In this document: one piece after another, positions 23,260 through 31,987 of the stretch
Layout: each line of letters begins with the position of its first letter
Numbering within the stretch: position 1 is the stretch's first letter
Assembly: GCA_015232315.1 (NCBI GenBank)
Contig: JADFZZ010000041.1
Span: 1,402 to 33,401, forward strand
Direction of reading: 5' to 3'
Length of the DNA: 32,000 bases
From: SAR324 cluster bacterium
GTDB lineage: Bacteria > SAR324 > NAC60-12
Notes under the pieces: model-generated
What the model was told of the DNA's origin: nothing
What the model saw: the letters and a program-made list of their open reading frames with translations, nothing else
Database searches by the model: none
Made by a program: the position numbers and the translations under genes

Positions 23260-26118
23260 ATGGCTTCAGCTCCTCCCAATAATCCATCAGTTCAGAAACC
23301 TGTCAGAAATATGCATCCGATCGGCGTGCATCTGGCTCGGGCCTACAACACCAACGTGAAACTCGGCTTTTTATTGAACAATAAAAAATCCATCATGGGC
23401 AATTCGCAGACAGGTTTTGCCTTGCAGCCATCGGCCATAAAAAGATTGCGAAGTATTTACAAGGAAGATCCCTCCTTAAGTTTTCTTCCTGGAAAAATCA
23501 CTGAGCGTGAAGAAGATGAATCCCTGGCCGCCAAACTTTATTTCATCACGGGACAAAGTGTGCTGGAACACTTCAGTGATACTGTCAGACAATTCATCAA
23601 ACCCTTGATGATGGCCATCTCCCGTGCGAATGATGAGGATGACTCTGACGAAAATAAGGCTAAAATCATTCAGATGTTCAATGAACCCGTGGACACTAAA
23701 AATCCACAGTCGCCCACCCCCTTCAAACTGTTGCGGCAAGTACAGCAGGCACTGATGAACATGCGGCAGCGCATGCAGATGGAAGTTGATGTTTTTGGCA
23801 GAGTCAGAAAAGGATTGATCACTGACGAGGATTGTCAACACGCCCTGACCTCGTCCAATCTGCTTGAAGTCAAGGGGCGCATTGTCGCGGCTGAACCGAT
23901 TTTTCATATCCTGAAAACACTGCGTCAGATCAAGCAATCAGGCTTCCAGGGAGAATTTCACCCTAAAATCACTCTGGAACGGGCCATCACCAATCTTGAG
24001 AACTGGGGTCCGGGTACCCCTCCCCGAAAAATAGAACTCAGAGATCATCCCTCTGGCAACAAAATTCCTGTTCTAAATCAAAAACTGAAGGAACAGCTTC
24101 AGATCTTCGATGAATCCGCCGCAGAAATTCTTCAGCACACAATTGCGCCACAATCCTCTCAGGAAATGCTGGATTATGCGACGCAAATGCTTAAAAAAAG
24201 CTATGACCCTCTACCACAGCCTGAACCATCCGAAGACGAAGAATCGCCAGAACCTGAAACCGCACCCATGCCACGGGCTAACCCGTTGGATGTTGAAGAA
24301 ATCATCCAGTTCTATCAGCACCGTGAACCCGGAAACACAATTTTTCTGGTACAAGCCCTTCATTTTGAAACAGCGGTGCAAACCTATTTGAAAAAGGGAA
24401 TTCTAGGCTTGGAGCAAACCAAGGAATTGCGTGAAATCTTTGTAACCACACTGATTGATCTGACCTGCGCGATTGATCTGTTTCTGTCAGAAGGAGAAAA
24501 AATCTGCGACAGCATTCGGAACTTTACCTCCAAATCCGGAATCAACTCCAACGCTGGCGAGTTGGGGAATGTTGTCAATCCCGGGAAAAACACGCATCAC
24601 CTGCATTTCACTGACGCAATCTATGAATGGACCTGGGGTTATGTCAAAGTATTAAAAAAATATGTCATGCTCAATGAAGCGATTCGTGACAAAATCATCA
24701 CCGAAGCACAAACGATTGAAGACATCGCGTTTCTTGACACCAATGAAGCGATTGACCGCATCACCCAGCTTCAGTCGTTGACGAACGCGTTCATCAAGGG
24801 CTATATCTCTGAAGAACAACAGAAACGCTTTCTGGATTCAGAACAAACATCCACAGAGGAACTACAAAGTGTCGCCTCTTTTTTCACAGCCCTGGGCAAA
24901 TACAACTTTGAAAAACGCTGTATTGATTTCACCAGAGGCATTCTGGAGTTGATCAGCTACTATGAGCCTCTGATTGAAAAAGACCCCACTTTCAAAAAAA
25001 ACTTTTTTCCGGTCTTCAAGGAACTCAAGGAACTGGCGGCTGAATCATCCCATACCCAGATCATTCAGGATATGCTGTCCGGCGAATCCTACAAACGTAC
25101 TCCTGAAAGCATTTCACTGATCGTCCAGCGACTGGGACACGCCCTGGAACTCAAGTTGAAATATGAGGGCTTCGTCAAGGAATATGGTCCGAAAATACAG
25201 GATCTGAACAAGGCCTTGAAAAGTGGCTATGATTTTGATCTGTATAACAAGATTTTTTATGTTTCAGAAGACCCTGAGGCCCCCTCATTGCTGGGAATGC
25301 TGAATCTGGTCAATGGTTCTGAGGAAGCCTGTGATCTGAATATTTTTCATGATAATGACAACATTCTGTTCCGCAAATGCCTCCTCAATTCCTTCAAAAC
25401 CAATATCGTGGACGAAAGCAATGTGACAGATCTGATCGGAATGGATTATTTTGTGAGTATTCTGACACATTTCCAGATTATGTTCTTTCATGCACTGCGA
25501 AAAATATTGATTCTGGATGTGGAAACCCATCGTAATGAGGAAGGTAATAACTCTCTGGGCATCAAGAAAGAGCGCATTGAGGAAATGCGACAGGAATGTG
25601 AAGCAATCCTGACCAAGCAGATGCCTATCAGTTTGGCCCTCAAAAAACTGGAGGGCATCTGGCAATCCCTTGAGAAAAACAAAGTCATTGCCACCAACGC
25701 AAAAAGCATTGCCATGATGCAGCAGAAATGGGAAGGGAGCATCCCCGGCGGATCTTCCCTTCACCAACGCTTGAAAAGCAACCCCAACAACCGGGAAATG
25801 CTGGAGGACTATGCAACAAAAATGCGGGAAGCTATTCAAAAATATCAGAAGGATATGGAACAAATCGCCCAGCGTTTGCGTGACTGGAAAAATAAACAGG
25901 ATGATCTTCCCAGCCACATTCGTGAGTATCAGCGTCAAATTCTGATCATGGAACGTTCCATTGCCCAGACTGTGGAAGAAATCCGCGAACTCAACCCCAA
26001 AAATCGGGATGATCTGCTCCGGCAGGTTCAGGAGAAAAATATCCGTATTGCCAAATATCGGAAAACTTTAGAAAAATTCAAGAAAGACAACCCTCACGTC
26101 AATTTATCCATCCCCTGA
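23260..26118 (+). CDS. large hypothetical protein (952 aa, apparently all-helical, no recognisable domain)
   Basis: Uninterrupted 2.86-kb ORF and first gene of a tightly spaced plus-strand cluster. Acidic and coiled-coil-like segments but no enzymatic motif recognised. The start is uncertain: no Shine-Dalgarno before ATG 23260, 23311 or 23395. Confidence 0.7.
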   Translation: MASAPPNNPSVQKPVRNMHPIGVHLARAYNTNVKLGFLLNNKKSIMGNSQTGFALQPSAIKRLRSIYKEDPSLSFLPGKITEREEDESLAAKLYFITGQSVLEHFSDTVRQFIKPLMMAISRANDEDDSDENKAKIIQMFNEPVDTKNPQSPTPFKLLRQVQQALMNMRQRMQMEVDVFGRVRKGLITDEDCQHALTSSNLLEVKGRIVAAEPIFHILKTLRQIKQSGFQGEFHPKITLERAITNLENWGPGTPPRKIELRDHPSGNKIPVLNQKLKEQLQIFDESAAEILQHTIAPQSSQEMLDYATQMLKKSYDPLPQPEPSEDEESPEPETAPMPRANPLDVEEIIQFYQHREPGNTIFLVQALHFETAVQTYLKKGILGLEQTKELREIFVTTLIDLTCAIDLFLSEGEKICDSIRNFTSKSGINSNAGELGNVVNPGKNTHHLHFTDAIYEWTWGYVKVLKKYVMLNEAIRDKIITEAQTIEDIAFLDTNEAIDRITQLQSLTNAFIKGYISEEQQKRFLDSEQTSTEELQSVASFFTALGKYNFEKRCIDFTRGILELISYYEPLIEKDPTFKKNFFPVFKELKELAAESSHTQIIQDMLSGESYKRTPESISLIVQRLGHALELKLKYEGFVKEYGPKIQDLNKALKSGYDFDLYNKIFYVSEDPEAPSLLGMLNLVNGSEEACDLNIFHDNDNILFRKCLLNSFKTNIVDESNVTDLIGMDYFVSILTHFQIMFFHALRKILILDVETHRNEEGNNSLGIKKERIEEMRQECEAILTKQMPISLALKKLEGIWQSLEKNKVIATNAKSIAMMQQKWEGSIPGGSSLHQRLKSNPNNREMLEDYATKMREAIQKYQKDMEQIAQRLRDWKNKQDDLPSHIREYQRQILIMERSIAQTVEEIRELNPKNRDDLLRQVQEKNIRIAKYRKTLEKFKKDNPHVNLSIP

Positions 26119-26130
26119 AACAAGGACTGT

Positions 26131-26829
26131 ATGCTCTATCGACAATGGATGTTTGCCGGGTATATCGGCATGGGACTGATCTTGATGAGTCTGCTTATCG
26201 CCGCCACTTTTCCCCGGAAAATGAACACCATGCCGGACGGCTTTTTTACGCCCATCATCGCGTTTGAATTCATCGAAACACAGGAAGAAGTGCGGCAGTT
26301 CTTTGGTCCGATGGATTCAGCGGAGACCCTCAAACGAATTGAGGCCATGAACCGTGGAAACCGTTTTGATTATTTTTATATCGTTCTGTATGGCCCCTTC
26401 TTAATCAGTATTCTGCGCACCCTGTCTATTCAGGAAAAAAATCCGGTTTATCTTCAACTGATGATTTTGCCCCTATTGGCAATGACAGGGGACTTTCTGG
26501 AAAACAGGCAATTATTTGCCATCACCTCCGGGTTGGTTGCCCTTGAACCGATTGATCAGCACCTCGCCACCCTTCACTGGACCACCTGGATGAAATGGGG
26601 AAGCCTGACGATCTTTTTCGCCGCGTTGATTCCATATTTCCGGCACCAAAACCGTTTTGGGAAAATTTATGTTTTGCTGGCCTCGTCGGCCCTTGTGCTG
26701 GGCCTTGTGGCACTGATCCAACGCTCGGTAGTCAATGAAATTTTTGCACTGCTTATTATTGGACTGTTTGTTCTGTTACTGATTTATAGCCAGCTCAGAA
26801 TCATACATTATAAACGAATGGGACAATGA
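26131..26829 (+). CDS. polytopic inner-membrane protein of unknown function
   Basis: 232 aa with about 6 hydrophobic helices. AAGGA lies 4 nt upstream of the ATG. Its stop overlaps the next start (ATGA at 26826-26829). Confidence 0.7.
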   Translation: MLYRQWMFAGYIGMGLILMSLLIAATFPRKMNTMPDGFFTPIIAFEFIETQEEVRQFFGPMDSAETLKRIEAMNRGNRFDYFYIVLYGPFLISILRTLSIQEKNPVYLQLMILPLLAMTGDFLENRQLFAITSGLVALEPIDQHLATLHWTTWMKWGSLTIFFAALIPYFRHQNRFGKIYVLLASSALVLGLVALIQRSVVNEIFALLIIGLFVLLLIYSQLRIIHYKRMGQ

Positions 26830-28442
26830 GTTTTGTTGATCCTGAACAGGTGAACGTGACAACTGAACAAACAAGATACATCCTGGCCATTGACCTGGGT
26901 ACCTCCGGCCCCAAAGTCGCGCTGGTCTCCGTTCAAGGACAGGTGCTGGACTGTTTGGTTGAAAAAACGCCGCTGGAACTGTTTCCCGGAGGTGGTGCGG
27001 AACAAGCACCCGAGGACTGGTGGAATGCCATTGCCCGGGGAGTGAAAAAACTTCTCGCTAAAACCCGGATTCCGCCAGAGCAGATCATCGCGGTGAGCAA
27101 CACGACCCAGTGGTCGGGTACTGTCGCGGTGGACCGCCAGGGAAAACCATTGATGAATGCCATCATCTGGATGGATTCCCGTGGTGCCAAATATCTGAAA
27201 AGAATAACCGGTGGCATACTGAACTATGACGGTTATGATCTCAAAAAGCTGTTCAAATGGTTGAGGAAAACCGGCGGGCTCCCTTCACAGTCGGGCAAAG
27301 ACCCCGTTGCGCATATCCTGTTCATCAAGCATGAACTTCCTCAAATTTATCAAAATACCTATAAATTTCTGGAACCCAAAGATTATCTGAATCTGAAATT
27401 CACCGGAAAATTTGCCGCCGGGATGGACTCCATTGTATTGCACTGGCTTACAGACAACCGGGATATTCAGAACCTGCGCTATGATCAGGAACTCATCCGC
27501 ATGTCCACCATTGATCCGGACAAATTGCCTCCCTTGAAAAAAAGCACTGATACGCTGGGCCGGATTCTGCCCGAAATTGCCAGAGAACTGGGTTTGTCTG
27601 AAGACACGGTGGTTGTGATGGGAACGCCGGATATCCAGTCCGCCACGATCGGTTCCGGTGCCGTCAGGGATTATGAAGCGCATCTTTATATTGGAACATC
27701 TTCCTGGTTGACGTGCCATGTTCCCTTTAAAAAAACGGATATTCTCCTCAACATGGCCAGCATTCCCTCGGCGTTGCCCAATAAATATTTTGTGGCCAAC
27801 GAACAGGAATGTGCCGGCGTCTGCCTGACCTATCTCAAGGACAATCTGTTTGCCCGCAAAGATGAACTCAATACCAATCCCAAAACGCGAAATGTGTATG
27901 AAATTTTTAATCAAATGGCAGAAAAAGTTCCTCCCGGCAGCAACAAGGTCATCTTCACCCCCTGGCTTTATGGAGAACGAACCCCGGTGGAAGATCATAC
28001 CATACGTGGCGGATTTCATAACCTTTCCCTCCATACAACCCGGGATCACATGATTCGTGCGGTATTTGAAGGTGTCGCGCTGAACTCACGCTGGCTGTTG
28101 CAATCCGTAGAAAAATTTGTCAAACGGCCCTTTCCCCAAATCACCATGATTGGCGGAGGTGCCATTTCTGATCTGTGGTGCCAGATTCACGCGGATATTC
28201 TGAACCGGCCGATCCGTCAGGTAAAAAATCCGATCGAAACCAATGTCCGGGGTGCGGCCATGCTGGCTTCACTGTCGCTTGGACTGATCACTGTGGACCA
28301 AATCGCCGAACAGGTTCCCATCGCGAATACCTGGAATCCCCGACCGGAACATAGAGCCTTGTATGATGAACTGTTTGAAAGTTTTCTGGAAATCTATCAC
28401 CAGAACCGCCGCATCCATGCCCGGCTGAACCGTCAAAAATAG
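26826..28442 (+). CDS. FGGY-family carbohydrate/polyol kinase (xylulokinase-like)
   Basis: N-terminal [16 protein letters not shown] (the DxGT phosphate-1 motif) and C-terminal [23 protein letters not shown]. The 538-aa length is typical of the FGGY family. Substrate cannot be assigned. Confidence 0.85.
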
Positions 28443-28449
28443 GAATGAC

Positions 28450-30003
28450 ATGAGCCTGCTACAAAATCTGAAAGCCACCATTGCCCAAGCCAATCCCAAA
28501 CCGTTGACTGACCTGCTTCAGCATCTGGACAAACTCCCGTTTTTGCCGGAAATCGAGAAATATCTGAAAAAATTTCCCCTGGTGAATGATTTGCTGGAAA
28601 AACAATACACACAGATTATGAAAGATCTGGAACAGTCCAGCAAACCCTACCGCAACGATTTTGCCACCCACACCTGTATTCCGAAAAAGGGAATCAACCG
28701 GGACGCTGTTTTGCAGGATATGCGAGCCATGCGTGATCTTGAAATTTCGCGCTGGAAAGACGGTTATGTGTCAGGTGCGGTTTATCATGGCGATGAACAG
28801 CACATTGATTTTCTGAATCAGGTGTATGCGCTCCATTCCCAAAGCAATCCGCTTCATTCCGATTTATGGCCCAGCATCACCAAGTTTGAAGCTGAAATTG
28901 TCGCCATGACCGCTCACATGCTGGGATCTTCGCAAAACAGTCCTGCGAAGGATGTTTGTGGAGTAGTGACCTCCGGTGGAACAGAAAGCATCTTGCTGGC
29001 CATGAAAACCTATCGTGATCACGCACGGGAAACACGAGGTATCCTTAAACCTGAAATGGTGGTTCCAGTCACCGTTCATGCGGCCTTCGACAAAGCCTCA
29101 CAGTATTTCAACATCAAGATGGTTCGCGTCCCTGTTGGACGGGATTATCGCACAAATATCCGTGCCGCAAAAAAAGCGGTCAACAGCAACACGATTGTCA
29201 TGGTTGGTTCGTCACCCTCGTTTCCGCATGGAGTGATCGACCCGATTGAAGAACTTTCCACGTTTGCCCTGGAAAAAGGAATTGGATTTCATACAGATGC
29301 CTGTCTGGGAGGATTTCTGCTACCGTGGGCTGAAAAACTGGGTTATGCGGTGCCGCCCTTTGATTTCAGACTTCCCGGTGTGACTTCCATTTCAGCGGAT
29401 ACCCATAAATTTGGTTATGCGGCCAAAGGAACCTCGGTGATTCTTTACCGAACGCCAGAACTCAGACATTATCAATATTACACGGTGGCCGACTGGCCGG
29501 GAGGCATGTATTTTTCCCCCACGTTTGCCGGTAGTCGTCCCGGCGCGCTGATCGCGGCATGTTGGGCCGCAATGGTCTCTATGGGGGAACAGGGCTATAT
29601 GGATGCCGCCGGAAAAATATTAAAAACCGCGGATACCATCAAACGTGAAATTCGAAACATTCCCGAACTGCATCTTTTGGGGGATCCGTTGTGGGTGATT
29701 TCGTTTGCCTCCAAAACCCTGGATATTTACAGAATCATGGATTACATGACCCAGAAACACTGGAACCTGAATGGCTTGCACAAGCCCTCTGCCGTGCATC
29801 TGTGCGTCACGCTCCGACATACCCAGACAGGTGTGGCAGAACGGTTTATCCAGGATCTTAAAGAAGCGGTGGCTTATGTGAGGCTCCAACCCAAAACCCG
29901 TGGCGGCATGGCACCCGTTTATGGACTGGCGGCCACACTTCCTGCCAAGGGCGTGATTGGGGACATGCTCAAACGTTATATGGATGTCTTGTATAAAGCC
30001 TGA
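28450..30003 (+). CDS. PLP-dependent group II decarboxylase-fold enzyme, sphingosine-1-phosphate-lyase-like
   Basis: [10 protein letters not shown]...[22 protein letters not shown] and [20 protein letters not shown] (PLP-lysine in HK) closely parallel the eukaryotic SPL motifs as I recall them (SNPLHPDIFPG..KIEAEIV; SADTHKYGFAPKGSSV). 517 aa, no N-terminal TM helix. Confidence 0.8.
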
Positions 30004-30006
30004 GTT

Positions 30007-30528
30007 ATGTCAAATCTTCGTTATCGCATTTCATCCTTTATCGTCATTTTCTGCATTGTTCTCGCCCAGACAAGCCACGCCTTGCCGCTTAAAACAGAAA
30101 TCCTCAACGACAAGGAACAGCCTGTCGCAAAAGTGCTGGTTTACATTGATTTTGTGGAAATTCTGGATATGTCCGACAACCTTCAGGGCAAAGTTGGCAT
30201 TTTCAACAATCAGGGCAATCTTGAACTGTTCATTGTGAAGGAAGATAACCTGAAATCAGTGGTTGGCAGAGCATTTGATCGGAAACTGTATGATGCCAAT
30301 GATCAACTGGTGGGCTATTATGACTGGAGCACTTTCTGGGTCTATGCCTATTCCCCCACCGGAAAAAAACTGGGACAGGCCAAATGCATTGCGTTTCGTG
30401 GCGTATGCGCGGCAGGAGTTGCCACCTATCTGACTGAATTATTGACAAAACCTCTTGTAACTCCCGGTGGAACTCCTAACATTGCCCAACCTGAAACAAT
30501 TCAGGACGGCGGCGTCACACTGGAATAA
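30007..30528 (+). CDS. small secreted protein of unknown function
   Basis: 173 aa, starting 3 nt after the SPL-like gene. N-terminal signal peptide ISSFIVIFCIVLAQTSHA-LP. No recognisable domain. Confidence 0.65.
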   Translation: MSNLRYRISSFIVIFCIVLAQTSHALPLKTEILNDKEQPVAKVLVYIDFVEILDMSDNLQGKVGIFNNQGNLELFIVKEDNLKSVVGRAFDRKLYDANDQLVGYYDWSTFWVYAYSPTGKKLGQAKCIAFRGVCAAGVATYLTELLTKPLVTPGGTPNIAQPETIQDGGVTLE

Positions 30529-30570
30529 TTGATTGCCGGAATCAATGACACATTACCTTCATGGAACCTC

Positions 30571-31314
30571 ATGGAACGTTTATCTTTAACCCAGGCCTGT
30601 GAAAAAATGGGAATCTCCAGAGTTTCCCTGAATAAACTGATGCGAGAACAGGGAATCAAGACTTCCCGATCCGGAAAAATCCAGACGATTACCATTGACC
30701 AGTATGAAGTCTTGAGATCCGCGCAGAAAAGAACGCTGACCCCTGAACTGTTGCCCACCCCCACGATTCATGAAATTCTCCCGGCCTTGTCAACAACCAT
30801 GGATCCTTCCGTTGAACGACTCGTCCGAACTCTGGAAACACAAATTGAGTTTTTAAAGCATCAATTACGACTTGAGGAAAATTCAACGGCTGATACAGCC
30901 AGTCTGGAAATTGAATTGTTGCACGAACACATCCGGATGCTAAAGACACAACTGGCTGAAATGAGGGACCGTGAACGCATGTTGCTGGAATTGAATCAAA
31001 CCCTCACCGAAAACAACATCAAACTGTCTGAAAGTTACAATCAGATCCATCAACTGCTGGTGAAAACACAGGAAGCAAACGCGGAACTCAGAACAGACAT
31101 TCGCACAATGGAAACTTTGGCCGAAGAAGCATCAGCCAATAATACACCACCCCCACCCATTCCTGTGAATGAGAACAGATCCATGGTTTCGGCGCTTCTC
31201 AAGCGGACGTTGCCCATCCTTGGACGAGGGGCCTCCGTGCCCCCTGCGCCCGCCCGAGACAAACAAAAGAATCCTCCACATAAAAATTTTTCTAAAAACA
31301 AACGTTCTTCGTGA
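30571..31314 (+). CDS. HTH (excisionase/MerR-like) plus coiled-coil protein with basic Pro-rich tail
   Basis: MERLSLTQACEKMGISRVSLNKLMREQGI looks like a helix-turn-helix. It is followed by about 110 aa of coiled-coil and a PPPPIP / KQKNPPHKNFSKNKR tail. ATG 30571 is preferred; TTG 30529, immediately after the upstream stop, is possible. Confidence 0.6.
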   Translation: MERLSLTQACEKMGISRVSLNKLMREQGIKTSRSGKIQTITIDQYEVLRSAQKRTLTPELLPTPTIHEILPALSTTMDPSVERLVRTLETQIEFLKHQLRLEENSTADTASLEIELLHEHIRMLKTQLAEMRDRERMLLELNQTLTENNIKLSESYNQIHQLLVKTQEANAELRTDIRTMETLAEEASANNTPPPPIPVNENRSMVSALLKRTLPILGRGASVPPAPARDKQKNPPHKNFSKNKRSS

Positions 31315-31320
31315 ACGGGT

Positions 31321-31665
31321 TCAGGCAAGAAAACACGATAACTCGACAAATGCCATCAATTCCTCTTCCAGTTCGGAAGAAATCCCTGAATCCGCAGGGA
31401 ACCATGGCATACCTTGATCAAAGACCGTGTGGTGTTCACACTCCAGACACTGGTATTTGGGGGGATGCACTTTGATATAGGTGTTCCCCAGCAAGGGAAA
31501 AGGCCGCATGGTGGTTTCTCCGCGAACGTCCAGGCGATGGTTCGTCATATAGCCACAAACCGGACAGATTCCCCATGTCGAATCAATATCCACACTGATG
31601 ATCATGCTTTTATCAGCCAGTAATTGACAATCTGTAATTTGAATATCATAGGCTTGGTGTTCCAT
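31321..31665 (-). CDS. 114-aa zinc-ribbon protein resembling the N-terminal zf domain of ISL3-family transposases (probable transposase remnant)
   Basis: Strong AAGGAGG lies 5 nt upstream of ATG 31665, which is why I prefer this start to the ORF-track start at 31791. The pattern MIISVDIDSTWGICPVCG...H..R..P..G......PPKYQCLECEH mirrors the ISL3 N-terminus (beta-segment, CxxCG, about 30 aa, (R/K)(Y/W)xCxxC). No DDE catalytic domain follows. Confidence 0.4.
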   Translation of the reverse strand: MEHQAYDIQITDCQLLADKSMIISVDIDSTWGICPVCGYMTNHRLDVRGETTMRPFPLLGNTYIKVHPPKYQCLECEHHTVFDQGMPWFPADSGISSELEEELMAFVELSCFLA

Positions 31666-31735
31666 TGTGTCCTCCTTGTTGAAAAAGACATTTTCCATAT
31701 TCTGAAATTTCTGGCGGTTTTCCCTATGCCCCGGT

Positions 31736-31987
31736 TTACTGACGCGCCACGAATCCATCCGTGTTGCGCGTGCACTGATTCGTTTCAGCAATAACTTTCC
31801 ATTTGTTGCTCATCACCGTCAAATAATCATTATTTTCAGCAAATTGAGCCAGTTCAGCCCCCTGCATTTCAAGCAGTAGATTTTGCCGGGCCAACTGAAT
31901 CGCCTGATTTTGATTCACCTGATAGAGCCACACGGTGATACCTGTCAAAACCAGCAGGACTACAAGCATCAACCGTCGAAGGAGCAC
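31736..31987 (-). CDS. small membrane-anchored hypothetical protein (start uncertain, frame open to window edge)
   Basis: 83 aa from GTG 31987 (an ATG lies 6 codons later). N-terminal hydrophobic anchor LMLVVLLVLTGITVWL, then a polar domain. The reading frame has no stop before nt 32000, so it may extend beyond the window. Confidence 0.4.
   Translation of the reverse strand: MLLRRLMLVVLLVLTGITVWLYQVNQNQAIQLARQNLLLEMQGAELAQFAENNDYLTVMSNKWKVIAETNQCTRNTDGFVARQ

Follow-up and report, generated by a model that had tools for sequence, protein, structure and literature searches.

An FGGY-fold kinase paired with a sphingosine-1-phosphate lyase-type enzyme in a SAR324 cluster bacterium: a candidate module for sphingoid-base degradation

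Introduction

Bacterial sphingosine-1-phosphate (S1P) lyases have been studied so far as structural surrogates and as virulence factors, and the papers searched for this work leave unexplained why thousands of environmental bacteria keep an S1P lyase, or what supplies its phosphorylated substrate. The question is raised by a locus in a SAR324 cluster bacterium, within a stretch of 32,000 nucleotides (positions 1,402 to 33,401 of contig JADFZZ010000041.1, assembly GCA_015232315.1) that is called the window below. Here a gene for a pyridoxal phosphate (PLP) enzyme with motifs of S1P lyase (SPL) follows a gene for a kinase of the FGGY type. What might such a kinase do beside such a lyase?

A reading of the DNA letters alone, referred to here as the original prediction, proposed that the two enzymes form a pathway whose kinase was recruited from a superfamily other than that of the known sphingosine kinases, and that an adjoining membrane protein imports or presents the lipid. 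The coupling of kinase and lyase has held up, through adjacency (69/76 loci), co-occurrence, correlated divergence and displacement of the kinase by a lipid kinase in one lineage; the role given to the membrane protein has not. From these comparisons we are inclined, by a little, to regard the pair as a two-step catabolic (or detoxifying) module that would act most likely on a long-chain sphingoid base.

The lyase

The closest match of the PLP enzyme among PDB sequences is the Symbiobacterium lyase StSPL (Q67PY4; PDB 3MAD, 3MAU), with a score of 2e-198 to 3MAD and about 67% identity over residues 59-516 (458 residues). Human SPL (6e-132), a Burkholderia enzyme (5e-124) and yeast Dpl1 (3e-119) come next, and the best decarboxylase matches are far weaker (MfnA, 4e-27; GAD, 5e-19). 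The protein belongs to the group II decarboxylase superfamily of fold-type I PLP enzymes (Pfam PF00282 at 9.8e-18), and it stays below the NCBIfam cut-offs for MfnA (215.9 vs 299.4) and for GAD (113.5 vs 380.4). The SPL-type motifs from which the original prediction started are present as quoted, and the nearest solved proteins are SPLs rather than GAD.

The active site can be compared residue by residue. In StSPL, the PLP is held by K311, H310, D274, H201, G168, T169 and S353, and the substrate phosphate or phosphoethanolamine by A103, Y105, N126, H129 and K317 (PMC10243590). After correction of a one-residue offset in chain numbering, the PLP-binding set is found unchanged in the window lyase as K320, H319, D283, H210, G177, T178 and S362, and the phosphate-binding set as A110, Y112, N133, H136 and K326, so that 12 of the 12 residues are conserved. 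This comparison had been named beforehand as one that could expose a decarboxylase. An amino-acid decarboxylase is ruled out by the PDB scores, the NCBIfam cut-offs and the conserved phosphate-binding residues. By homology, then, this PLP enzyme is a genuine lyase of the SPL type, with the corresponding activity predicted.

No hydrophobic segment or membrane anchor was found in the window lyase, and StSPL has no transmembrane anchor either. StSPL degrades S1P (PMC3148216), and the active site of SPL is reached through a narrow hydrophobic tunnel (PMC10243590). StSPL has been studied only as an isolated enzyme, whereas in the window a partner gene is identified by synteny.

A conserved gene pair

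The open reading frames (ORFs) of the window lie exactly as first described, with the PLP enzyme 7 nt after the FGGY kinase and the kinase start overlapping the stop of the membrane protein. A lyase scan with one genome per species gave 294 confirmed relatives, from which the best 80 loci (58-73% identity) were kept; these come from Chloroflexota, Myxococcota, Thermodesulfobacteriota, Spirochaetota, Actinomycetota, Bacillota, Bacteroidota, Calditrichota, Fidelibacterota and Burkholderiales. By tblastn, a kinase orthologue lies directly upstream on the same strand in 69 of the 80, mostly at 49-64% identity, which is about 90% of the 76 loci with enough upstream sequence; four of the 11 others are cut by a contig end. 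There are odd cases among the 69: the kinase of L086 is divergent (31%), that of L069 lies 1.2 kb away and that of L054 is cut by a contig end. The gap between kinase and lyase runs from -4 to 126 nt, with a 4-nt overlap in 8/37 pairs, and about two thirds of the loci are bare bicistrons, with no further co-directional ORF within 150 nt.

The two genes also occur together at the level of whole genomes. Among 121 evenly sampled Chloroflexota genomes, 8 carry both (kinase orthologue at least 53% identical, lyase at least 61%), 1 the kinase only, 0 the lyase only and 112 neither, and the pair is adjacent in 6 of these genomes; the associated p of 1e-11 is overstated, because relatives are not independent. 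Pairwise divergence of the kinases follows that of the lyases, with a Mantel r of 0.83 that was reached in 0/2000 permutations. In genomes G008 and G115, the gene order is swapped and the pair retained. Adjacency, co-occurrence and correlated divergence strongly support the view that the kinase is evolutionarily locked to the lyase, and on this comparative ground kinase and lyase are well supported as a functional pair.

Clustering of 474 flanking ORFs found no third widely conserved gene beside the pair, and no conserved sugar-type transporter was found there in the flanking-ORF comparisons. The recurrent neighbours are local to particular clades: a response regulator, MMPL, a histidine kinase, a cupin and SDR, with an MMPL transporter upstream in Archangium.

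Apart from the window genome, the sister genome G008 (Deltaproteobacteria bacterium TL4) is the only member of the window's family with both kinase and lyase. It carries two lyase copies, one a solo lyase that groups as sister of the window lyase (support 87), the other a divergent copy beside the kinase, in swapped order. No kinase adjoins the solo lyase (C132, L011/L014), upstream of which lies a 318-aa protein without a family match. The kinase comes after the divergent lyase (C121, L012); a sugar transferase gene lies upstream there and a gene for a Fur-like regulator downstream.

The FGGY kinase and its substrate pocket

The assignment of the partner as an FGGY kinase is borne out by domains, fold, ATP motif and catalytic Asp. 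Pfam matches are to FGGY_N (8e-41) and FGGY_C (3e-29), and no hydrophobic segments were found in the protein. An AlphaFold2 (AF2) model built on a 34-sequence alignment (pLDDT 88.8, pTM 0.89) resembles gluconate, xylulose and glycerol kinases in Foldseek (TM 0.78-0.82, identity 19-26%). The N-terminal ATP motif of the DxGT type, DLGTSGPK, occupies residues 23-30, and the catalytic Asp, D269, aligns with D233 of XylB (D245 of GlpK) and is invariant in 45/45 members of the clade described below. The kinase has FGGY domains only and lacks the diacylglycerol (DAG) kinase domain PF00781; the DAGK_cat genes of this genome lie elsewhere. It could thus work like SPHK or Lcb4/5 while standing, as judged from its domains, outside that family.

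The public gene call, P0125, is 502 aa long and starts 36 codons later (window region 26826-26936), losing the ATP motif. This start is probably mis-set. Since the motif lies at residues 23-30, the correct start is the long one, or else a GTG lying a few codons further on.

Could the gene encode an ordinary sugar kinase, a xylulokinase, whose position beside the lyase has no functional meaning? Most sources annotate its homologues as 'xylulokinase', and its best NCBIfam model is indeed XylB, but the score of 268.8 on that model (TIGR01312) is under the cut-off of 380.25, and the protein falls below every other NCBIfam equivalog cut-off as well (NF011601, also XylB, 159.5 vs 912; GntK, 221 vs 649; GlpK, 129 vs 590). 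Five pocket positions (R83, E84, Y135, D245 and F270 of GlpK) classify FGGY specificities (Zhang et al. 2011, PMC3245297), and these were read from an alignment in which the 45 members of the SPL-linked clade were set against seven reference kinases of E. coli, whose sequences came from the annotated K-12 record. The third position (GlpK Y135) shifts between alignments (Y vs S) and was disregarded. The signature of the SPL-linked clade is W-S-x-D-W (W96-S97-x-D269-W294), with W96 in 43/45 members, S97 in 35/45, D269 in 45/45 and W294 in 43/45, as against M-H-F-D-V in XylB and R-E-Y-D-F in GlpK.

Phylogeny gives the same answer. A maximum-likelihood tree unites the SPL-linked kinases in a single clade with a Shimodaira-Hasegawa-like approximate likelihood-ratio test (SH-aLRT) support of 100 and a stem of 0.81. 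All seven references fall outside it, as do the paralogues from the window's relatives, and one of these paralogues, truly XylB-like, joins E. coli XylB. With SPL adjacency in ten or more phyla and near-perfect co-occurrence added, the comparative data contradict the idea of a bystander sugar kinase, to which we give almost no credence. The kinase has the FGGY fold and, at the level of sequence, is not an orthologue of any characterised sugar kinase; the clustering by specificity residues that had been proposed as a check thus set it apart from xylulokinases.

Two further features of the family were seen. Compared with XylB, members of the clade carry about 12 extra residues (kinase residues ~121-160; about 130-150), and this insertion holds a conserved basic/aromatic helix with K, L, W145, R, L, T149, G150 and G151 nearly invariant; that it has a membrane-interfacial function is only a guess. 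The commonest FGGY paralogue of the window's relatives (L017-L021, L024-L026; G001, G011-G013, G017-G020) has the signature C-C-N/D-D-L, groups loosely with E. coli AraB and fits none of the seven reference signatures.

Replacement by a lipid kinase

Six of the 76 informative loci, which belong to Fidelibacterota and allies (L043, L044, L063, L065, L081 and L084), have no FGGY gene although enough upstream sequence is available. What adjoins or overlaps the start of the lyase in those six loci is an ORF for a 310-332 aa protein with DAGK_cat and YegS_C domains (1.6e-21 to 3e-24 in L043 and L081; 2.3e-19 in L084). The PDB matches of this replacement kinase include human sphingosine kinase 1 (5e-07), DgkB and a protein with a DAG-kinase domain (4e-13), and among NCBIfam models it fits that of the YegS/Rv2252/BmrU lipid-kinase family best. 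The six DAGK-linked lyases form one clade (support 98) that is nested among FGGY-linked lyases. Sphingosine kinases belong to the DAG-kinase family (2018 review, PMC6148460). Replacement by the very fold that makes S1P in eukaryotes is the strongest argument that the kinase slot would feed the lyase and that the substrate would be lipid-like.

After the lyase comes a bacterial PH-domain (bPH_2) protein in L043, L044 and L065, and a sodium/bile-acid-family (SBF) transporter lies downstream of the lyase in L043, L044, L063 and L065. L084 has an endonuclease/exonuclease/phosphatase-family (EEP) gene just upstream; it was considered as a sphingomyelinase and rejected, as no informative match was found.

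The probable substrate

The proposed pathway has two steps. In the first, the cytosolic FGGY-fold kinase would transfer phosphate from ATP to the C1 hydroxyl of a 2-amino-1,3-diol, most likely sphingosine, sphinganine or phytosphingosine from imported or scavenged sphingolipid. In the second, for which the model is StSPL, 67% identical and active in vitro, the soluble PLP lyase would form an external aldimine with the C2 amine and cleave the C2-C3 bond by a retro-aldol reaction, yielding a fatty aldehyde and phosphoethanolamine. The FGGY kinase would thus take the role of the eukaryotic DAG-kinase-fold sphingosine kinases, having been recruited from the sugar-kinase superfamily, with two Trp in its pocket presumably replacing polar sugar-binding residues. 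A sphingoid base as substrate is favoured by the StSPL-level identity of the lyase, the displacement by a lipid kinase, the pocket Trp pair, the lack of conserved transporters beside the pair, and a ceramidase.

The ceramidase is a full-length neutral ceramidase encoded in the same genome (Table 1), with both N- and C-terminal domains; it could release the sphingoid base. It scores about 508-512 bits in Pfam and 402 bits on the NCBI neutral ceramidase model, the cut-off of which is 1200. No obvious signal peptide was seen on it. The gene stands alone, flanked by those for a polyphosphate kinase and a DUF4460 protein. Among 41 related genomes, ceramidase is found in 2, the window's own (G000) and G008, which are the same two that have the pair. 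Across 50 lyase-bearing genomes, 16 have a ceramidase match and 13 a strong one.

The main rival to this reading keeps the same order of kinase and lyase but makes the substrate a water-soluble or non-sphingolipid 2-amino-1,3-diol. Candidates would be serinol-like compounds, 2-amino-2-deoxy-alditols or aminopolyol natural products, which would give phosphoethanolamine and a short aldehyde or aldose. It draws on a sister clade of the kinase in Chloroflexota (46-48% identity), which has the pocket signature G-E-x-D-W, with Gly-Glu where the SPL-linked clade has Trp-Ser. Two of its operons (L129, L130) run from class II aldolase through class-III aminotransferase and major facilitator superfamily (MFS) transporter to FGGY kinase, the transporter carrying Sugar_tr-type matches; in L131, aldolase and aminotransferase flank the kinase. 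The sister clade always lies beside a PLP enzyme acting on amines, which fits an amine-bearing substrate and the common theme of phosphorylating C1 of a C2-amine compound and then applying PLP chemistry. Its operon may encode another pathway, with transamination of the phosphorylated amine giving a ketose-1-phosphate-like compound that is cleaved afterwards.

Several observations weigh against a sphingoid base and to that extent speak for the rival. To our knowledge, no FGGY kinase acts on a lipid or amino-alcohol, the characterised members taking small sugars or polyols, and we know of no natural substrate established for StSPL-type lyases in bacteria. The MFS transporter and class II aldolase of the sister branch hint that soluble amino-polyols are handled there. 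Because the six DAGK-linked lyases form one nested clade, DAGK for FGGY is, as the tree has it, one replacement event and thus a single instance. The unrelated membrane protein of the window shows the identical pattern of 2/41 genomes (G000, G008), and the ceramidase pattern may therefore only reflect the kinship of these two. No strong ceramidase was found in the searched SPL-bearing genomes of Chloroflexota, Actinomycetota and Fidelibacterota. In 101 Myxococcota genomes, 10 have SPL and 10 have ceramidase, with an overlap of 3 where about 1 is expected (p=0.058), and the genome-level link of the pair to ceramidase is weak. Ceramidase was thus tried as a firm pathway partner and lost ground to the membrane-protein control, the Myxococcota overlap and the Chloroflexota carriers without ceramidase.

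Nor is a serine palmitoyltransferase (Spt) evident in the window's genome. Its sole alpha-oxoamine synthase candidate fits best as BioF and is far under the Spt cut-offs, which led us to reject endogenous sphingolipid synthesis. Any sphingoid base would therefore be scavenged or otherwise exogenous.

With the weak ceramidase link, the missing Spt and the small polar substrates of all characterised FGGY kinases (PMC3245297) on its side, the soluble substrate is nevertheless opposed by four points. The lyase is as close to S1P-cleaving StSPL as stated above, and SPL has its hydrophobic tunnel (PMC10243590); the sole displacing kinase found has the lipid-kinase (DAGK/YegS) fold; the polar pocket positions of sugar kinases are Trp in the SPL-linked clade, as opposed to Gly-Glu in the sister clade; and no sugar-type transporter is conserved beside the pair. 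We regard the soluble substrate as unlikely, though a serious contender, and retain a long-chain sphingoid base as the preferred substrate.

Neighbouring genes

The pair lies in a string of six tightly packed co-directional genes (Table 1), in which the junctions are, in order, a 12-nt gap, a 4-nt overlap (ATGA, where the stop of the membrane-protein ORF overlaps the kinase ATG), the 7-nt gap between kinase stop and lyase ATG, a 3-nt gap and a direct abutment. No plus-strand terminator-like sites were found between the six genes; there is one weak match inside the kinase gene. Only the kinase (FGGY_N/FGGY_C) and the lyase (Pyridoxal_deC) have Pfam matches. A fragment of an ISL3-family transposase follows the gene string directly, which fits a mosaic, possibly acquired region.

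Table 1. Coordinates of the genes and operons discussed (window positions unless another locus is named).
Feature	Position	Strand	Length	Basis or remark
Orphan protein, no family match	23260-26118	same direction as pair	952 aa	
Membrane protein gene	26131-26829	+	232 aa	ORF listing
FGGY-fold kinase gene, SPL-linked clade	26826-28442	+	538 aa	ORF listing; Pfam FGGY_N + FGGY_C
StSPL-type S1P lyase gene (PLP enzyme; predicted)	28450-30003	+	517 aa	ORF listing; PDB match
Orphan protein with N-terminal hydrophobic signal-like segment	30007-30528	same direction as pair	173 aa	
Orphan protein, weak HTH_17 match and coiled-coil-like sequence	30529-31314	same direction as pair	261 aa	
Six-gene string	23260-31314	co-directional		ORF listing
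ISL3-family transposase fragment	31321-31791	-	156-aa ORF	matches N-terminal 84 positions only, 3.5e-07
Neutral ceramidase gene, own genome	G000:C6:55987-57462 = L114:9511-11550	-		
DAGK-SPL locus L043	1976-6115			
DAGK-SPL locus L044	9069-13015			
DAGK-SPL locus L081	2575-5106			
DAGK-SPL locus L084	5446-9004			
Sister-clade operon (G202)	L129:6435-11626			Chloroflexota
Sister-clade operon (G109)	L130:3190-8155			Chloroflexota
Sister-clade operon (G108)	L131:2951-7014			Chloroflexota

The overlap with the kinase start and the tight packing of the six genes are what speak for a three-part system, in which the 232-aa membrane protein would bring the lipid in or present it to kinase and lyase. 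The protein has at least four hydrophobic segments and no Pfam match, but tblastn found it in 0/80 of the related loci. A polytopic membrane ORF of any kind lies within 150 nt of the pair in only 3/47 loci, and the single one that was compared shows no sequence relationship to the window's. The window's membrane protein has 28 homologues at 34-47% identity, one of them annotated DUF4386, and the three homologue contexts that were examined are unrelated to one another and to sphingolipids. The only one of the window's relatives that has it is G008, where it lies on a contig other than those of both SPL copies. The coupled importer or presenter of the original prediction is thus not sustained, and we think a three-part system highly improbable. 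The membrane protein was rejected as a part of the module and is rather a local neighbour, probably co-transcribed with the pair.

The 952-, 173- and 261-aa proteins fare no better: none was found in the 80 related loci or at the SPL loci of G008, and with neither Pfam matches nor conserved loci they were likewise rejected as module parts.

Relationship to known pathways and significance

The nearest known system is the degradation of long-chain bases (LCBs) in eukaryotes, by SPHK1/2 or Lcb4/5 and then SGPL1 or Dpl1. The proposed logic is the same, with phosphorylation of the C1 hydroxyl followed by a PLP-dependent retro-aldol cleavage, and the lyases are homologous to the window's. The kinase here differs in having the FGGY (actin-like ATPase) fold rather than the DAG-kinase fold of the known sphingosine kinases (PMC6148460); in addition, both enzymes are soluble and their genes lie in an operon. 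The closest solved FGGY kinases, E. coli XylB (2ITM) and a Lactobacillus gluconate kinase (3GBT), share the two-domain fold, the ATP motif and the catalytic Asp, and are set apart by an identity of 24-26%, another pocket signature, the absence of the insertion of about 12 residues, and the window kinase's lack of sugar-catabolic neighbours. The YegS/BmrU/DgkB lipid kinases (DAGK_cat) fill the kinase slot before orthologous SPLs in the six loci described above, but they are not homologous to the window kinase, and none adjoins SPL in the window's genome.

Full-text literature searches found no paper that links an FGGY-type kinase with S1P lyase or sphingoid bases. The comparison suggests that the pair may be an undescribed variant of the route from LCB kinase to S1P lyase, in which a different superfamily supplied the kinase. 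A broader proposal, which we put forward tentatively and with slightly less than even confidence, is that the SPL-linked FGGY clade would represent the first kinase of sphingoid bases (2-amino-1,3-diols) without the DAG-kinase fold and the missing partner of SPL in free-living, non-pathogenic bacteria of ten or more phyla. It would lie within a wider FGGY branch of 'amino-diol kinases' that feed PLP routes: direct cleavage by SPL in one case, and in the other transamination, with a class II aldolase or RuBisCO-like enzyme acting next.

With a conserved partner kinase, from a superfamily where none was expected, the question of what feeds the environmental S1P lyases can be tested directly with two recombinant proteins. 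If the proposal is true, a widespread mis-annotation as 'xylulokinase' would be corrected and a non-homologous isofunctional sphingosine kinase added to those known. The turnover of sphingolipids or amino-diols would then look like a widespread trait of bacteria in the sea and in soil, SAR324, Anaerolineae and myxobacteria among them.

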